This document shows positions 5,328-27,043 of a stretch of DNA of 44,330 nt, piece after piece; position 1 is the first letter of the stretch, and each line of letters starts with the position of its first letter. The stretch is taken from the NCBI GenBank assembly GCA_963843375.1, contig CAWJKT010000002.1, positions 1 to 44,330 on the forward strand. Reading direction: 5' to 3'. The notes under the pieces are model-generated. The model ran no database searches, was not told the DNA's origin, and saw only the letters and a list, made by a program, of their open reading frames with translations. The translations under genes and the position numbers were made by a program. This DNA comes from an uncultured Pseudomonadota bacterium. GTDB lineage: Bacteria; Oederibacteriota; Muellerivitia; Muellerivitales; Muellerivitaceae.

Positions 5328-7381
5328 TTACCCACCCACTGGAGAATGCATCACCAACTTTACCCAGTCCTTCTCACCTTCAAAACCTGGCAACAGTTCA
5401 ACCTTCTGTGGTTCTAATCGAGGCTCCAAACGAACCGCAAAGACAAAACTGTTTTCATAAATTCCAACGGGATCCATAAAATACTTCCAAAACCTTACAT
5501 ACTCTGAAACTGGCATTCCCTCGAGTTTGAAGTCTTTTTCTTCATGGGACATGGCTCCCGCTTCCCATTCCTGGTATAAGAAATAACGAACCCCTTCTTT
5601 TTGAAGAACCATTGCCAATTCTTCGGCGGTTTTACAATGGGATGCCCATTGAAAGAAAATAGGCCTTTTCCACTTAAAATCCACAAAGGCAATCCGTTGC
5701 AAGGGATAAGTTTGGAATACTGCAAAAGCAAGCACCTTATCCTTAGAGTCCGAATGGTCTTCGATTCCCTTGTAGGCGGAGTATGTATCCAGGTCATAGG
5801 AGTAATGTCGTTTAAGCCTTAATAGTGGATCTTCAAGTCCTAAGGCTGAAGCGTAGGGAGCCGTTGTCGTCAGTTGAGCTGAGAGGCAAAGCCAAAAAGA
5901 AAGAGCAACGCCCGCTCCGAATAGAATTTTTGCACCGTTCCTTTTTTCCTTAAAACCCTCTCCCCAAGCCATTGCCGCAAGGAGGATCAGTACCACCGCG
6001 CACCCGGAAGCATGGCGAAAACTAGAACTAATAAAAATCCACCCAGCAAAATACAGTACAAAAAAGAACAAAAGAAAAAATCCAAATCTTGTTTTTACTA
6101 TATTCCAAGCCCAGGGGAGGCTCATCGCCACGAGAGGCGTCCATGGGGCATTCACTGCATTGGAAGTGGTGAAAAAGGAATTCCATAAATTCATAAAAAG
6201 ATCGGCAAAACCTCTTGGTAACCCTGTATCGGTTAATAAATCGCTTCCCATTTCCGGACTATATCCGACAGCCGCTCCAAAAATGGAAATCGCCAACGGA
6301 TAAACAGGGTTTCCAAATGCAAGCCAGTTTTTAAACATCCAGGGGAATATGGGCAGAACGAATATCAGAACAGATATCAAATTTAGCTTTAATGGATTTT
6401 TCCGAATTAACTTTTCATAAATCCAAATTAACACCATAGGGATCAAGGCCAAAACAGCCGTATATTTAATCGCAAATGCCGTTCCCAGGAAAAACGTCAT
6501 CATAGGCAACCAAACCCTATCCCTCGGTTTTTGAAGAGCATTCCAAAAACAAAAAAGAGCTATGATTTCGAAAAAAGCCAGAAACCCTTCCACGTATCCC
6601 CAGGAATAAAGGGCAAGGAAAAAAGGGCAAGTCCAAAAGATTAAGGCGGTTAACTTTCCCGTTTGATTCCCTTCACGGGCAAATAGAACGAGCAACCAAT
6701 TCGTGAGGATTGCAGGCAATGCGCTTGAAAGCTTGGCTAGGCTCTCCCCCCCAAGTTCCAAAATCCGGCTAAAACGAGTTCCTCGGCTTTGGGCATATCA
6801 CCCGTGTGGTTAGTCCAATGAAGGAGGATTTGATGAAGCCGAGAGACTTCCCTGGCAAAACGAAAATGGTCCAAGATGGCATCCCAAACCAATGGAGGGG
6901 ATAAATATTCAAATGCCCATATACCCAACGGAAAGATCAACCATAAACCCCAAATTCCAGGCTTTGATCCCGAAAAGAAAAAAGCGAAATCTTTTCGTCC
7001 TTTCCAACCTTCCATTATGGGCGGAATGAAAAACAATGCAGTCAGAGGCCAATAAAGGATTTCATTCACCGATAAACCGAAAATATAAAGCGAGAAAAAA
7101 CCAAGAGCCAGGGAAAACCCCAAAAGAAGCGCCACACTTTTTTCAGTCTTCGGAAAAAAACCGGCCTTAAACCAACGCGCCCAACCCATAAATCCAAAAC
7201 CAATCGGAACTAACCATAAAAACGAGACGCCTCTTTGAATGATCGTAGGAAAAAAGAAATTTCCATTCCATTGCGTATCTTGAAGAAGCTTCAATGAAGG
7301 GAAAAAGGGAGATTTGCCGATGCCATAAATGAAAATGGCAAGAATCAGCAAGGAAGCCAAAGTCTTTTTCAAGAATTCCAC
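5328..7381 (-). CDS. Polytopic membrane glycosyltransferase-like protein (GT-C/ArnT-PMT type), split by one frameshift
   Basis: ORFs 6737..7381 and 5328..6761 join if the G7 run (C7 at 6746-6752 on +) is G8: WNLGG-ESLAKLSS. Many transmembrane segments; WDAILDH, KYTA and PWMFKNWLAFGNPVYP are typical of these proteins. Confidence 0.7.
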
Positions 7382-7469: not shown

Positions 7470-7553
7470 GCCCGGGTGGTGAAATGGCAGACACGTACGC
7501 TTGAGGTGCGTATGGGGAAACCCGTGCGGGTTCGAGTCCCGCCTCGGGCACCA
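7470..7553 (+). tRNA. tRNA-Leu (anticodon GAG)
   Basis: GCCCGGG/CTCGGGC acceptor stem, D-arm GGTGAAATGGCAGACAC, anticodon stem TACGC-TTGAGGT-GCGTA, long variable arm GGG-GAAA-CCC, T-loop GGTTCGAGTCC, encoded CCA. Confidence 0.97.
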
Positions 7554-8302: not shown

Positions 8303-9362
8303 CTATTTCAGCTTTTCCTTCAGAGCCAGTGCGTCCGGATTATCGGATTGGAAAGACAAGGCCGTTTTTAAATAAAATTTGGCCTCTTTGCCGCTGCCTT
8401 GATCCGAGAAAGTGGAAGCCACCGCGGCGTAGTAACTTGCCCGCATGCCATTGATATCTTTTCCTGGTACCTTTTCTTTTTGAAGTTCGTTGAAAAAGGC
8501 CTTGGCCTTCTGGCCCAACACCGCGACTTGGTCCTTTTTAATGAGGTTAGGAACCAACTCGGTATTTAATTTAGTCATTGCGGTTTGTGGGTCTAATGGT
8601 TCATCCCACCAACCATTTTTTGACGGATGGCTTTCTTTCACGGGTTTTTCGTTGGAAGCGGCTGGAGCGATGGCTGGCTTATTTTCAGCTACTTCCGCTA
8701 CCGCAATCGATGTTCCCGACCAGCCCGCTGGTCCACCCAAAGCCGCCTTGGATTCCACGAACTGTTTCTTGGCTCCGTCCCAATCCAAAACGTGTTCGGC
8801 GTCATTTCGGTCTTTGACGAAATCCTTGGAAGAACACCACAATTCGGTTCCATCGATTTTCACGAAAACCTGCGGGGCTGAGGCATCCAAGACCTGTTTC
8901 ATTGCGCCATCGATATAAGCGAATCCCTTCAGGTTCTGGCCCCCCTTTAGGTCATCCCGCTGGAAAATCAAAAAAGGCACCTTTTTATCCGGGATCGTCA
9001 CAAACCTCAACCATTGGATGGTTCCACCCTCGTCCTGGAAGCTCTTTTCGTATTTCTTTTGTTCGGCGTTATAAAAACAAATGTTTAAGGTTTGGTTATG
9101 GGGTTTGTCCAGTTCGTTGACAGGGGCCGATTGGCGGTAAATGAGCAGAAGATCCTTTTGTCCGATTCCGCGAAAATCCTCGAAATCGAAAAGCCCCTTA
9201 CTTTCGATTTTTCCGTCGTCATCCATCCAAGGAAGGTTTTCAAGGAGATGGTCCGGCGGAAGGATCGAATCCATCCATTGATTTTGGGCCTTCGCCATGC
9301 CCGGCAAAGCTTGCGAAAATACCCAGAAATAAAAAAATCTTTTTCAAATTGGAAAACTTCAT
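8303..9362 (-). CDS. Hypothetical exported protein; signal peptide separated by a frameshift
   Basis: ORF 8303..9307 has no good start. ATG at 9362 has a GAGGGG Shine-Dalgarno, and removing one base from the C3 run at 9300-9302 gives MKFSNLKKIFLFLGIFASFAGMAKA-QNQW, a Sec signal peptide. The C-terminal helix pair looks TPR-like. Confidence 0.6.
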
Positions 9363-9396: not shown

Positions 9397-10401
9397 CTAA
9401 GGCTTTAACCATCCGGAGATTAAATAAAATTGAACTGTATTCTTCAACCCTTTTTCAATATCAAATCTCGGTTTAAAGCCAAGCCTTTGACGAATCTTCC
9501 GATTACTGCATACCCAGCCGGGAACCCCCGCTTCCTTCAGCTTATCGGTACTGACAATCGGCGGTAAAAAAGATTTGCCGGTTAACCGGGCCAGCCCATC
9601 TCCTAATAACGCCGCTATTCTAACGATTCCCAGTGGAACATTGAACGATTTATAAGACTTTTTAAGAATTCGTCCGATATGGGCTGATAATTCATTCCAA
9701 TTCAAACTTTTCCCATCGCAAACAAAGAAAATCTGCCCCTTGGCCTTGGGGGAATGTCCGGCCAGAAGGATGGCATCCACCAGATCGGCCACATAAATAA
9801 AGCTAACCCTTTGGGTTCCGTCCCCTCCGTTCACCACCAATCCCTGCCGTACCATCTTAAAATACTCGAAAATATCGGTTTCCCGTGGCCCATAAACCGC
9901 TCCCGGCCGCAAAATAGAAATCTCGAATTTTTCATGATAAGAGAGGACTATTTCCTCCGCCAATCGCTTGGTCTTTCCGTAAAAACTGACGGGGTGGGAG
10001 GGCATGGTTTCATCGATTTCGCCACCCAGGGGTGAAGGCCCTGCGGCTGAAAGCGAACTGACATAAACCAGCCTGCGGAATCCCTTCTCCTCCTGGACCG
10101 CCTGGCAAACATTCCTTGTTCCTTCGGTGTTCACCATTTGATAGGCCGAATAATCCGCTCCCCTTAAAATTCCCGCCAAATGATAAACGATCTTTACGCC
10201 TTTAACCGCTTTCCGGACGGATTCCAAATCCGTCACGTCGCCATAGCACAATTCCATTAGTGGCGTTATGGGAAAGGGCAACCTACTCGTATTCCTGACC
10301 AGCAACTTCACTTTTACTTTTTGTCGAGACAAAGACTCAGCCAAATGGCTCCCGACAAAACCGCTGGCTCCAGTGATTAAAACAGGCGAATTAAATTTCA
10401 T
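9397..10401 (-). CDS. cerR: NAD(P)-dependent epimerase/dehydratase (extended SDR), probable ceramide reductase CerR
   Basis: TGASGFVG, HLAG, SSLSAAGP, YGKTK (YxxxK), LRPGAVYGP. The family call is solid; the CerR call rests on its divergent position next to spt and bcerS. Confidence 0.65.
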   Translation of the reverse strand: MKFNSPVLITGASGFVGSHLAESLSRQKVKVKLLVRNTSRLPFPITPLMELCYGDVTDLESVRKAVKGVKIVYHLAGILRGADYSAYQMVNTEGTRNVCQAVQEEKGFRRLVYVSSLSAAGPSPLGGEIDETMPSHPVSFYGKTKRLAEEIVLSYHEKFEISILRPGAVYGPRETDIFEYFKMVRQGLVVNGGDGTQRVSFIYVADLVDAILLAGHSPKAKGQIFFVCDGKSLNWNELSAHIGRILKKSYKSFNVPLGIVRIAALLGDGLARLTGKSFLPPIVSTDKLKEAGVPGWVCSNRKIRQRLGFKPRFDIEKGLKNTVQFYLISGWLKP

Positions 10402-10458
10402 TCCGACCCTTTACAAAATGAAAATGGGAGCTGGTAAACCCTAAAACCGGCAAAATGT

Positions 10459-10487
10459 TTGATTCAGGGTGGTCCCTATCCTATAAT
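10459..10487 (+). promoter_or_regulatory. Sigma70 promoter for spt-bcerS
   Basis: TTGATT (10459-10464), 17-bp spacer, TATAAT (10482-10487). Confidence 0.65.
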
Positions 10488-10617
10488 GCCCCGTCGCTTT
10501 GACCCAAACCCCTTGACTCTTCGTTGGCTTCAACGAAAAAAGGGATTAACCCCGCAGTTATTATGCTGATTTCGACACTCCCGTGGGGCAAAAACAACTT
10601 TAAATATTAGAGGTATC

Positions 10618-11814
10618 ATGGACATTTTCGATAAGGCGAATATTTGGACTGCCGCGGACGACGTACGGAAACTGGGACTCTATCCCTATTTCCGGGCCAT
10701 CACTTCTGGCCAGGATACCGAGGTCGTAGTCGGCGGGAAAAAGATGATAATGGTGGGTTCCAACAACTACCTGGGGCTGGTCAATCACCCCGAGGTCAAG
10801 GAGGCCATGATCCACGCCATCGAGAAATATGGTTCCAGTTGCACCGGTTCCCGGTTCCTGAACGGGACGCTTGATTTGCATGAGGAGTTGGAGCGGAAAT
10901 TGGCTGCTTTCGTGGGTCAGGAAGCCTGCTTGGTTTATTCTACTGGCTTTCAGGCCAATCTGGGGGTTCTTTCCACCATTGCCACCCGGGGTGATTACAT
11001 CATTTCCGACCGCGAAAACCACGCAAGCATCGTGGACGGACAAAAACTCTCCTTCGCTAAAACCGTCAAGCACGAGCATAGTAATATGGAAGACCTGGAG
11101 AGGGTCCTTGCCAATCATAAGGACGACCCCAAGCTCATTGTAACGGACGGAATCTATAGCATGGGTGGGGATATCTGCAAACTTCCCAAAATCATCGAAT
11201 TGAAAAAGAAATACAACGCCCGGGTGATGGTGGATGAGGCCCATTCCATCGGCGTCCTGGGAAAACACGGTGAAGGCACCGGCTTCCATTTTGGGGTCCA
11301 AAAAGACGTTGATATCGTCATGGCAACTTTCAGTAAGTCTTTCGCGGCTCTGGGAGGTTTTATCGCCTCGACGTACAAGGTGATTGACTTCCTGAGGCAT
11401 AATTCCCGCCCCCTGATCTTTTCGGCTTCCATGCCCCCAACCTCGGTGGCGGGAGTCTTGAAGGCCTTGGAAATTATGCAAAGAGAGCCCCAACGTATCG
11501 AAAAGCTCTGGAAAATTGTTCACCGAATGAAGAAAGCCTACGAGGATATGGGTTATCAGACCGGCGTTACGGAATCCCCTATCATTCCCCTGCATATCGG
11601 CGATGATCTGGTCACTTTCCAAATGACGAAGGAACTGGGCGAAGAAGGGGTTTTTGCCACCCCCATCGTCAGCCCCGCCGTGCCTCCCGGCATGGCCCTG
11701 ATTCGCACCAGTTACAGCGCCACCCATACCGATGCACAATTAGACTTCGTGCTGTCGAAGTTCAAAAAAATAGGTCAAAAAATGGGAGTTATTCCCACGG
11801 GAATTCACGTCTAA
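10618..11814 (+). CDS. spt: Serine palmitoyltransferase (PLP-dependent alpha-oxoamine synthase)
   Basis: LYPYFRAI, GSNNYLGL, GSRFLNGTLDLH, NHASIVDG, DEAH, TFSKS (PLP lysine) and LIFSAS. GSRFLNGT/YPYF/FSAS resemble bacterial SPT more than BioF, KBL or ALAS. GAGGT Shine-Dalgarno. Confidence 0.85.
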   Translation: MDIFDKANIWTAADDVRKLGLYPYFRAITSGQDTEVVVGGKKMIMVGSNNYLGLVNHPEVKEAMIHAIEKYGSSCTGSRFLNGTLDLHEELERKLAAFVGQEACLVYSTGFQANLGVLSTIATRGDYIISDRENHASIVDGQKLSFAKTVKHEHSNMEDLERVLANHKDDPKLIVTDGIYSMGGDICKLPKIIELKKKYNARVMVDEAHSIGVLGKHGEGTGFHFGVQKDVDIVMATFSKSFAALGGFIASTYKVIDFLRHNSRPLIFSASMPPTSVAGVLKALEIMQREPQRIEKLWKIVHRMKKAYEDMGYQTGVTESPIIPLHIGDDLVTFQMTKELGEEGVFATPIVSPAVPPGMALIRTSYSATHTDAQLDFVLSKFKKIGQKMGVIPTGIHV

Positions 11815-11858
11815 AATTAACCCACAATTGAATTGTCTTTTCTTGCAGGAGGGACAAA

Positions 11859-13058
11859 ATGGCTGTCGCAATCGAATCCGTTGATAAAAAAAATGCGGGG
11901 AGTTATCCAATGGCAGTCACCATTAAAACCGTTGACCTGAATAATAAAAAGGAAGTGGAGCAATTCCTCCACCTGCCTTGGAAAATCTATGTAACCCCCG
12001 ACGGTAAAAAGAATCCAAATTGGGTTCCTCCCTTTCTCGATGACCAACGCAGCCTCCTGAACCCGAGCAAAAATCCCTACCACATCCATAGCCAGACCAA
12101 GCTTTTCATGGCCTTCAACGACAAAAACGAATTGGTGGGCCGGATTTCCGCCAGCGTGGACGACAATTTTAATAAGTTCTGGAATGATAAGGTCGGTTTT
12201 TTCGGCTGGTTTGAATGCATCAATGACCCGGCCGTGGCTCAGGCCCTTTTCCAGGCTGGGGAGAAGTTTTTTAAGGATGGAGGAATGACCAGTGTCCGCG
12301 GCCCCGCCAGTTTCTCTTCCAACGACGACTATTTCGGTTTTCTCCTTGAAGGCTACGACTCCCCTGCCCGCATCGCCATGACCTATAACCCTCCCTATTA
12401 CATCGAATTGGCCGAGAAATCGGGTTATACCAAAGCCAAAGATCTTTATGCCTGGTACCTTTCGGCGGAGATCGACCTGCCGGAACGTATCGTCAAGATC
12501 GCCGAACGCACCATGAAAAGGGAAAGAATCACCATCCGTCCCCTTAACATGAAAAGGCTCTATCAGGACGCCGCCATCCTCAAGGATCTTTACAACAAGA
12601 TTTGGGAAAAAAACTGGGGCTTCGTTCCCATGACCGACGCGGAATTTAACTATCAAGTCAAGAAGCTCAAGGATATCGTCTGGCCCGATTTCGTGGTTTT
12701 CGCCGAGGTGGAGGGTCGAGCCATCGGTTTCAACCTGGTCGTTCCCGATGTGAACCAGGCGCTCATCAAGATGGACGGCGAGCTTTTTTCATTACACGAT
12801 CCTTTCGCGCTAGTGAAATTCCTCACTTGTAAATTTGATGACACCCGCGAGATGGCCATGGGAGTTCTTCCCGAATACCGCAAGAAGGGTCTGGAAGCCA
12901 TTCTTTACCTAGAAGCCCTGAAAACCGGCAAAAAACGCAAAATCAAGGGCGGCGAGTTGTCATGGACCCTGGAAGATAACGAAGGAATCAATAACGGTAT
13001 CGCAGCCATGGGCGGGAAAATTATCAAGAAGTACAGGATCTACAGTAAAACCTTGTAA
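11859..13058 (+). CDS. bcerS: GNAT-fold N-acyltransferase, bacterial ceramide synthase (bCerS/YghO-like)
   Basis: LPWKIY..PNWVPP, KNP, VGRISA, GFFGWFECIND, VRGP, YNPPYY, NWGFVPMT, MGVLPEYRKKG, ELSWTLEDN; lies directly downstream of spt. Alternative in-frame start at 11910. Confidence 0.8.
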   Translation: MAVAIESVDKKNAGSYPMAVTIKTVDLNNKKEVEQFLHLPWKIYVTPDGKKNPNWVPPFLDDQRSLLNPSKNPYHIHSQTKLFMAFNDKNELVGRISASVDDNFNKFWNDKVGFFGWFECINDPAVAQALFQAGEKFFKDGGMTSVRGPASFSSNDDYFGFLLEGYDSPARIAMTYNPPYYIELAEKSGYTKAKDLYAWYLSAEIDLPERIVKIAERTMKRERITIRPLNMKRLYQDAAILKDLYNKIWEKNWGFVPMTDAEFNYQVKKLKDIVWPDFVVFAEVEGRAIGFNLVVPDVNQALIKMDGELFSLHDPFALVKFLTCKFDDTREMAMGVLPEYRKKGLEAILYLEALKTGKKRKIKGGELSWTLEDNEGINNGIAAMGGKIIKKYRIYSKTL

Positions 13059-14061: not shown

Positions 14062-14470
14062 ATGCCCTATCCCAAAGCAACTTATGAGGTCTTAATCCTT
14101 GAATCTTATTTGGATTCCTTCGGTCATGTAAACAATGCCGCCTACCTGACCCTTTTCGAGGAAGCCCGGTGGGACTTTATTACCAAGAATGGTTATGGAC
14201 TCAATAAGGTCCTGGAGACTCCAGCAAGGCCCTGTCGTTCTGGAACTGAGCATGAAATTTAAAAAAGAAATCCGATTAAGGGAAAAGATTAAAATCACCT
14301 TTGAGATGCTGGCCCACACGGGAAAGATCAGCCGTTTCCGGCAGGAAATGATCAGGGAAGACGGAAGCGTCGCCACCGAACTGGAACTGACCTTCGGACT
14401 CTTTGATTTTAAGACCCGCCGCTTAGTCGACCCTTCCCCCGAGTGGAAGAAGGCCATTGGACTCGAATAA
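14062..14470 (+). CDS. Acyl-CoA thioesterase (4HBT/YbgC hot-dog fold), one frameshift near 14221
   Basis: LDSFGHVNNAAYLTLFEEAR motif. One extra base near 14220-14222 joins ...NKVLET to QQGPVVLELSMKFKKE.... Confidence 0.8.
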
Positions 14471-25709: not shown

Positions 25710-26124
25710 TCAAGGCCTGCTTTTGAGTTGCCTCAAAATTTCATTCAACCGGGCTTCGAAGTCATTCTCTTCGTGAAGTATTGTCCAAGCCCAGAAGGCG
25801 GTTCAGGGCGATTCGAGTGATGAGACTACCCTTGAGGCGGTGGTCTTGAGCCAAAACCTCCTCCAAAAGACGTATTTGGGTGAAAGTTAATTTTGAGCTT
25901 TTTTGTTTCCCGTCGATTTTAACTCGCCTTCCGGTGCCAACCGGTTTCATTGATTGTTTTCTCAGATCCGTCAATCTTTCGGTCGTCCTCTGAGCTTGGG
26001 TTTTGGAGGGGAAATTCGATTTTTCGGCTGAGACTCGTACTTGCTCTTCACGGTCCTGCCGAAGGGCTTGGAGTCGTCTTATCTGCTTTTCGGCCTCAGT
26101 TAAGTGCTTCTCTTGCTCGCTCAC
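25710..26124 (-). CDS. Hypothetical coiled-coil protein with a ribbon-helix-helix-like C-terminal part; probable frameshift near 25773
   Basis: GTG 26124 with AAGGA upstream gives MSEQEKHLTEAEKQIRRLQ.... Removing one base extends the protein with EENDFEARLNEILRQLKSRP to a stop at 25710. Confidence 0.5.
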
Positions 26125-27043
26125 GGACCAGTCCTTCTTCATCAAATATGAAAGGCCACTTTCTTTCGAGCCAGGGTGCAAAGAAATAACACGACAACCC
26201 TACCCCCAAACCCGCCACAACATCAACGAAATAATGATACCGTCCATAAATGGTGCCCGCGAACATCGCCATGGTCATAAAAAGCACAACAAACCGCCAT
26301 TTTCCAAAATACCGGTAAGCCATAAAACAAATGATGGATGCGGCAATGTGGGAACTGGGAAAAGACCCCCCAGGAAACGCGTTATTTTCAACCGCCGCTT
26401 GGAGCCAATCGGAAACCCAATAACCCTGGAGGGATTCCCGGAGTCCCGGCATATAAAAACGGGGGCTTTCCGCCGGAAGGAAAATGAAAAGGATGTAATG
26501 GAGGTAATAAGTAAAGCTAAGAGAAAACATGAACTCGCGGAATCGAGTCCGTGGCGCTCGGAAATAAAGCACTAACGCCGAAAGGGGCATCAGAACGAAA
26601 TAAAAACTGTAACCGATGCTAAAAAACTCGTTTAAAAGCCGAGCGGGGGGATAAAACTTTTGAAAGTTCCAGACCCTGAATCCAATTTTCCCCATCTCGT
26701 TATCCACGCTTAATAGCCATTCATCAAGCGTCCAATCAAAATATTGGTGGATCAAAAGCCCTACTTCTTTATAGAAAAATAACATCGCCACAAGGGGATA
26801 GAAATCGCAGATAAAACGAACGGGGGGAGCGGTAACATTTCGCAGATTCCATAAGGCCACCATCAACGCCACAAAAATCAAAACGTGATATCCAATGAGC
26901 CGGAATTTGTCCTCAAAGGAAAGATTCCCGGCCAATATTAATCCCGCCATGAAGAACTGATATAAAAGCACCAATGAATCCACTGGTTTAATCCAGGGCT
27001 CAGGAGCACGTTCAATTTTGATTGTGTATAAGTTCTTGGGCAT
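26096..27043 (-). CDS. PAP2-superfamily membrane phosphotransferase/phosphatase, Aur1/IPC-synthase-like (PAP2_3 type)
   Basis: Multiple transmembrane segments; YFSFY, LPAESPR, SFPSSH and GRYHYFVDVVAG (the His/His/Asp triad motifs of Aur1-like proteins). Confidence 0.8.
   Translation of the reverse strand: MPKNLYTIKIERAPEPWIKPVDSLVLLYQFFMAGLILAGNLSFEDKFRLIGYHVLIFVALMVALWNLRNVTAPPVRFICDFYPLVAMLFFYKEVGLLIHQYFDWTLDEWLLSVDNEMGKIGFRVWNFQKFYPPARLLNEFFSIGYSFYFVLMPLSALVLYFRAPRTRFREFMFSLSFTYYLHYILFIFLPAESPRFYMPGLRESLQGYWVSDWLQAAVENNAFPGGSFPSSHIAASIICFMAYRYFGKWRFVVLFMTMAMFAGTIYGRYHYFVDVVAGLGVGLSCYFFAPWLERKWPFIFDEEGLVRERAREALN

Follow-up and report, generated by a model that had tools for sequence, protein, structure and literature searches.

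Three neighbouring genes in a 44,330-nt contig from an uncultured bacterium (CAWJKT010000002.1, assembly GCA_963843375.1; this whole stretch is referred to here as the window) very probably form an intact ceramide locus, the products of which are likely to make dihydroceramide, as judged from the encoded proteins and their genomic arrangement. On the minus strand lies a cerR-like gene for an extended short-chain dehydrogenase/reductase (SDR) of 334 aa, the predicted 3-oxo-ceramide reductase (9397..10401; PF01370, E 2.9e-40). Divergent from it on the plus strand are spt (10618..11814), encoding a pyridoxal 5′-phosphate (PLP) enzyme of 398 aa that is an alpha-oxoamine synthase of the Bacteroidota/deltaproteobacterial Spt type and a predicted serine palmitoyltransferase, and a bcerS-like gene (11859..13058) for a tandem GNAT protein of 399 aa, the predicted long-chain N-acyltransferase (ceramide synthase). 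These three open reading frames (ORFs) are open where the original prediction had placed them, and the features by which it had recognized the locus, namely the GSRFLNGT and TFSKS motifs, the 44 nt between the spt stop codon and the first ATG of the GNAT gene, and the divergent SDR gene, are all present. Its claim that the genes are intact despite neighbouring frameshifts also holds, as no indel is listed within the trio in the contigs of four public runs, which cover it piecewise. The frameshifts themselves, at 6745, 9300, and 14218, are missing from the contigs of two, three, and four of these four runs, respectively, and are therefore probably errors of the source assembly.

The taxonomic placement of the contig, which had been left as a check, identifies the host as a bacterium of candidate division FCPU426: no 16S rRNA was found in the 80% complete genome, and an RpoB fragment used instead shares 87–91% identity with three genomes carrying FCPU426-titled records and 56% with E. 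coli. By analogy with work on Caulobacter, E. coli B, and Sphingobacterium, Spt would join L-serine and a long-chain acyl thioester to give 3-ketosphinganine, the GNAT protein (bCerS) would attach a fatty acid in amide linkage, and reduction of the 3-keto group by the SDR (CerR) would yield dihydroceramide. No conserved dedicated acyl carrier protein (ACP) was found, which points to acyl-CoA or a housekeeping acyl-ACP as the probable acyl donor. The dihydroceramide would enter a membrane that also has lipopolysaccharide (LPS), and would lie beside LPS and not replace it, because LpxC, the sole lpx product searched, is encoded in the host genome as it is in 96 of 99 genomes of the phylum; an LPS-replacing glycosphingolipid envelope of the Sphingomonas type was rejected on the same ground. 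The order of the last two steps is disputed (PMC11087976). Acylation before reduction seems somewhat the likelier order here, because spt and bcerS, and not the SDR gene, make up the co-oriented pair that fuses in relatives.

Identity of the three proteins

The window PLP enzyme contains the alpha-oxoamine synthase family domain (PF00155), and its best sequence match in the PDB is the Spt of Sphingobacterium multivorum (3a2b/8guh; 440 bits), followed by another alpha-oxoamine synthase (320 bits), Sphingomonas-type Spt (265–287 bits), Kbl (272 bits), cysteate acyltransferase (268 bits), and BioF (193–195 bits). Among NCBIfam models, NF047600 (SerpalmtaseCFB) scores highest (556.9 bits, the runner-up reaching 416), and the BioF and Kbl models score at least 150 bits lower than the Spt model. 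HemA and CqsA likewise rank below Spt. In a quick tree of 91 rows the enzyme is placed with Spt-like rows, those of Bacteroidota among them, and is separated from BioF and Kbl with support 92. The only other member of the family in the genome passes the BioF cut-off (TIGR00858) and adjoins a BioD-like gene.

The active site was compared through 22 active-site and pocket residues named for the Sphingobacterium enzyme in PMC10196870, a set that does not include Asp210, His213, Arg82, and Arg357. Seventeen of the 22 are identical, including Asn52, Gly80, Ser81, Phe83, His138, Thr241, Ser243, and Lys244, and the acyl-wall aromatics are kept. The two enzymes thus share His138, the Ser81 loop, and the PLP-lysine motif, which in the window is TFSKS (residues 237–241; 11326..11340, plus strand), aligned to Thr241–Lys244 with Lys240 equivalent to Lys244. 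The loop described as shaping the substrate pocket of the Sphingobacterium enzyme (PMC10196870) is GSRFLNGT in the window (residues 77–84; 10846..10869, plus strand), the canonical form with Arg79 and His88.

For the other two proteins, the E. coli BL21(DE3) orthologues described in PMC9386255 served as queries in place of the Caulobacter bCerS and CerR sequences. The sole match of YghO in the genome is the window GNAT protein (33% identity over 389 aa, E 1e-60, one-way search), and although no PDB sequence match was obtained, a structure model (predicted local distance difference test score, pLDDT, 85) matches tandem GNAT acyltransferase folds (E 6e-14), as expected of the bCerS/YghO-like protein originally proposed. 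The grouping of the SDR with CerR is borne out with moderate strength. Epi (ECD_02852) finds the window SDR as its best match in the genome (E 2e-34; next 1e-6) and is in turn the best BL21 match of the SDR, the two forming a reciprocal best pair with 26% identity over 321 aa (26–28%). The SDR carries TGASGFVG at residues 10–17 and YGKTK at residues 141–145, and in a tree of 38 rows it clusters (support 92) with Epi and with the SDRs encoded next to spt in Aureispira, Rubrobacter, and Streptomyces, to the exclusion of eight further SDRs from its own genome.

Several observations weigh against a ceramide locus. At 556.9 bits the window Spt misses the curated cut-off of NF047600, an equivalog model (640 bits), and is not filed under it; the Parabacteroides enzyme passes (683.8), and the Aureispira enzyme fails too (487.1). 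Five of the mapped pocket residues differ from the Sphingobacterium enzyme (A26P, P30A, S53N, A79T, and M271I). A search of E. coli BL21 with the PLP enzyme ranks Kbl (5e-81) above Spt (6.5e-76), which is no surprise if the two Spt subgroups lie far apart (PMC9386255). Apart from this match and the missed cut-off, every sequence test upholds the gene identities. Both supports of 92, for Spt-like proteins against BioF/Kbl and for CerR-like proteins against other SDRs, are unstarred and come from quick, long-branched trees. The identity between SDR and Epi is only 26%, and the SDR has no visible signal peptide or transmembrane stretch, its Rossmann motif beginning at residue 10, whereas the Caulobacter CerR is described as periplasmic (PMC11087976); the missing signals do not by themselves reveal the location of the window SDR. 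Finally, a GNAT protein of the bCerS family occurs without this Spt in eight genomes of the phylum, five of them at least 96% complete, so that the GNAT family alone is not specific to the pathway. An Spt-like gene may also lack Spt activity (PMC8895605). Separately, a Priestia megaterium plasmid (NZ_CP137804.1) was seen to carry an Spt-like gene (49% identity) that has neither a bcerS nor a cerR homologue in the 5 kb around it.

The pocket differences also bear on whether the product of the trio is a sphingolipid-like lipid built from a different amino acid or acyl chain, for example one with a homoserine base or an alanine- or glycine-derived 1-deoxy base. The Sphingobacterium enzyme is reported to bind and use other amino acids (PMC10196870), 1-deoxysphingolipids are reported from anoxic water (PMC11334938), and besides the five changed residues in the window, most members of the host's family have a changed substrate loop (described below). 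The window enzyme itself, however, keeps the canonical loop and the equivalents of the serine-holding Asn52, Gly80, Ser81, His138, and Ser243, and cysteate acyltransferase scores far lower than Spt, which makes such a product improbable for this locus.

Distribution in FCPU426 and relation to known systems

Conservation of the trio was assessed from the closest relatives of the GNAT gene and from the 99 genomes of the phylum. Eleven of 25 GNAT loci are titled candidate division FCPU426, and the remainder are unclassified or proteobacterium-labelled, at 73–95% identity, or, in one case, Bdellovibrionota (39%). The same three-gene order is found in 20 of the 25; four exceptions are contigs that start inside the GNAT gene, and the fifth is the Bdellovibrionota locus. 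With presence thresholds picked after the scores had been seen (Spt E ≤ 1e-100, GNAT 1e-10, SDR 1e-30), Spt was present in 53 genomes of the phylum, GNAT in 60, SDR in 49, and all three in 48, counts that include kin and are not independent. The host's own family has all three genes in 28 of its 31 genomes, and none of the three was found at these thresholds in any of the 34 genomes of families f10–f23. The SDR never occurs without this Spt, and it was not found in 4 of the 53 Spt-positive genomes. Families f4–f7 keep the divergent arrangement of the SDR gene and spt, with bcerS at another site.

In five genomes of families f8 and f9 (G019, G023, G025, G032, and G033), Spt and bCerS are fused in a single ORF of ~780–810 aa (loci L028–L032, with a partial fusion in L033). 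One of these fusions, used as a protein query, returned 74 full-length fusions with Spt first among the 120 matches listed, and no published Spt–GNAT fusion was found in a literature search. The fusion proteins often carry the public name 8-amino-7-oxononanoate synthase. Such natural fusions within the same phylum are relevant to the dispute over whether acylation or reduction comes first. Of the 29 rows of a GNAT tree, 19, the Spt-linked GNATs of families f1, f2, and f4–f9, make up a single starred group, a pattern consistent with long vertical inheritance. Family f9 also has bCerS-family GNAT paralogues away from spt (L076:4480–6902 and L077:4807–5958), which branch apart from the Spt-linked copies and, in G023, stand in tandem and beside a classical SDR.

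This distribution bears on a reading in which Spt and the GNAT protein yield an N-acylated aminoketone, whether oxo-ceramide or some small signalling or secondary metabolite, while the SDR has no part in this and acts on sugar nucleotides alongside the membrane glycosyltransferase encoded downstream. The SDR matches sugar epimerase models only, its gene is co-oriented with genes for a secreted protein and a GT-C glycosyltransferase, and it is missing from the four Spt-positive genomes mentioned above. Against this, the SDR gene is divergent from spt in families f4–f7 even though the locus there lacks the secreted-protein and GT-C genes, the SDR is confined to genomes with Spt and is the reciprocal best hit of Epi, and SDRs encoded beside spt in three other phyla cluster with it; we regard a sugar-nucleotide role as very improbable. 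That the PLP enzyme is BioF or Kbl and its neighbours coincidental is scarcely credible and was rejected, for although its relatives are publicly named 8-amino-7-oxononanoate synthase and Kbl is its best BL21 match, the genome has a separate BioF, the PDB and model scores favour Spt, and the gene order, co-occurrence, and Spt–bCerS fusions are conserved.

A ceramide pathway is thus the preferred reading, and the same three families are clustered in Caulobacter crescentus (Spt, bCerS, and CerR: CC_1162, CC_1154, and CC_1164) and in E. coli BL21(DE3) (ECD_02854, yghO ECD_02850, and ECD_02852). The predicted window locus differs from both in having no acpR or aasR and in an SDR gene divergent from spt, and its Spt belongs to the other subgroup, with 37% identity to that of E. 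coli B. Likewise, the rhodobacterial five-gene system (spt, acpR, aasR, epi, and aca) has a dedicated acpR before spt, and an aasR, which the window locus has not. In Bacteroides and Parabacteroides records, spt adjoins a gene of the diacylglycerol-kinase family and not, as in the window, bcerS. The layout of the window recurs in Aureispira anguillae (NZ_AP026868), with the SDR gene divergent from spt-bcerS, whereas Rubrobacter radiotolerans (NZ_CP007515) and Streptomyces sp. NBC_01001 (NZ_CP108712) have spt, bcerS, and the SDR gene in a row. These three loci, themselves predicted only, have no ACP annotated within 5 kb, and their Spt proteins share 43–47% identity with that of the window. In many uncultured phyla, the clade B “Spt-like” proteins described from Black Sea metagenomes (PMC11334938) are likewise encoded close to bCerS and CerR.

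These comparisons change what may be called new. The original prediction was right that the locus has no dedicated ACP gene, but the grounds for novelty that it drew from this and from the style of the promoters are weak, neither feature being special: trios without an ACP gene are present on the Aureispira, Rubrobacter, and Streptomyces records, and the AcpR/AasR pair belongs, according to PMC9386255, to the Spt subgroup of alpha-, beta-, and gamma-proteobacteria, so that a missing ACP is normal outside that subgroup. Its proposal of a new lineage stands in part. Neither FCPU426 nor Goldbacteria nor Firestonebacteria is mentioned in connection with sphingolipids in the main text or preprint of PMC11334938, the supplement of which may list the lineage, in the available text of PMC12619533, or in literature searches; the pathway, on the other hand, has already been predicted widely, with Spt-like genes in 38 phyla of the Black Sea and 40 phyla in all (PMC11334938). 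The locus is most likely a functional instance, to judge by its genes, of a known pathway in a lineage not yet named as a producer. It leaves the view of the pathway as widespread unchanged and adds one more lineage to it, giving a barely described candidate lineage a concrete envelope trait and naming a probable source of bacterial ceramides in soils and lakes. The window stretch is present in soil and lake-water metagenomes, one run of which may be the source sample, and no RNA dataset is listed among those containing it.

Substrate-loop alleles of Spt

Within the host's family and its sister family, the substrate loop of Spt occurs in two forms. Twenty-six of 30 Spt rows read GSPFLNGT with Arg nine residues on, and four, from the window, L001, L016, and a sister-family genome, have the canonical GSRFLNGT with His; a frameshifted copy with the Pro/Arg form (L058) fell under the length filter and is left out of the count. 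The comparison set window positions 10846–10883 against loci L002–L015, L017, L018, L020, L021, and L059–L066. All other families of the phylum that were checked have the Arg/His loop. The alleles are 73% identical and are separated by 40 columns along the gene; at 23 of these the sister-family enzyme agrees with the window, and at 10 with the variant.

In the tree of flanking genes the window is nested deep among Pro/Arg carriers, and in the spt tree its spt lies outside all of them; both constraint tests reject agreement of the trees (approximately unbiased test, p 1.6e-4 and 2.8e-6), on quick trees with groups named after a first look. Because the canonical spt of the window conflicts with the flanking-gene tree, an in-place exchange of alleles is suggested, and replacement of spt, in either direction, is the simplest reading of the conflict. 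That the Pro/Arg allele changes the product is a guess. A wider proposal, which we hold only tentatively and consider doubtful, is that two exchangeable Spt alleles exist at one FCPU426 locus, that the family-wide Pro/Arg variant makes a different long-chain base, and that the canonical form was swapped back between unchanged cerR and bcerS. If true, the family would offer a natural experiment on the specificity of Spt as well as an overlooked source of unusual soil and freshwater sphingolipids. In practical terms, the allele pair, differing in the substrate loop, and the natural Spt–bCerS fusions provide material for testing.

Putative control signals and neighbouring genes

Upstream of spt, a sigma-70-type promoter-like site, TTGATT-17-TATAAT (10459..10487, plus strand), matches the consensus at 10 of 12 positions, and a Shine-Dalgarno-like GAGG lies at 10610..10613 (plus strand). 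The TTTGA and TATAAT boxes and the GAGG are invariant in all 10 aligned spacers, which upholds the signals described in the original prediction in part; the first box is TTGATT and not TTGACA, and the promoter scan count is at chance level (5 sites found, against 4.3 ± 2.0 in shuffles). Ahead of the first GNAT start, another Shine-Dalgarno-like sequence, GGAGGG, lies at 11848..11853 (plus strand). A second in-frame ATG at 11910 is the start position in most relatives, and the start appears to be duplicated in the window (11859–11930), where MAVAIESV... is followed by MAVTIKTV. The resulting N-terminal extension is common to L001 (where it is out of frame), L011, L014, and L016, and residues 1–16 of the GNAT model have pLDDT < 50.

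Behind the SDR gene, at a distance of 34 nt, a gene on the minus strand (8303–9362) encodes a secreted protein with a signal peptide, a beta-rich domain, a Pro/Ala linker, and TPR-like helices, the start of which is cut off in the window by a one-base assembly error near 9300. This protein was found in 31 of the 99 genomes, all of one order; it has no PDB match at E ≤ 0.001, and its matches in a structure atlas are weak and TPR-like. A GT-C (PMT_2/DUF8201-like) membrane glycosyltransferase gene (5328–7381, minus strand) lies near the trio across the order; it is one ORF of ~680 aa in relatives and is split in the window by the assembly error at 6745. A tRNA-Leu(GAG) gene (7470–7553, plus strand) stands between it and a HAD gene. 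A larger sphingolipid operon including the secreted-protein and GT-C genes was considered and rejected: both adjoin the SDR gene in the family and sister family, but the secreted protein was found in genomes of one order only, and no functional link to the trio emerged.

With regard to the acyl donor, the genome holds several AMP-binding enzymes and an ACP in the fab cluster. A second ACP gene on contig C28 (L079:8268–10514, G000) is divergent from a gene for an AMP-binding enzyme, with a nitroreductase gene following. This second ACP was found in only 2 of the 99 genomes, both of the host genus, and so does not track spt, and a remote dedicated ACP pair was rejected on this basis. The match to AasR in the genome is weak (E 1e-6), with no clear AasR orthologue. 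Downstream of the trio, a 4HBT-type acyl thioesterase gene (14062–14470, plus strand) is split by the assembly error at 14218; in many loci of the family it lies within ~6 kb downstream of bcerS, and in several directly after it. A PAP2_3-family membrane protein, a putative headgroup candidate, is encoded 13 kb from the trio (26096–27043, minus strand). Elsewhere in the phylum, a PAP2_3-family gene adjoins spt in G018 (L044:8033–8920) and a gene of the diacylglycerol-kinase family in G004 (L036:4714–5715), and both kinds are candidates for headgroup transfer or phosphorylation.

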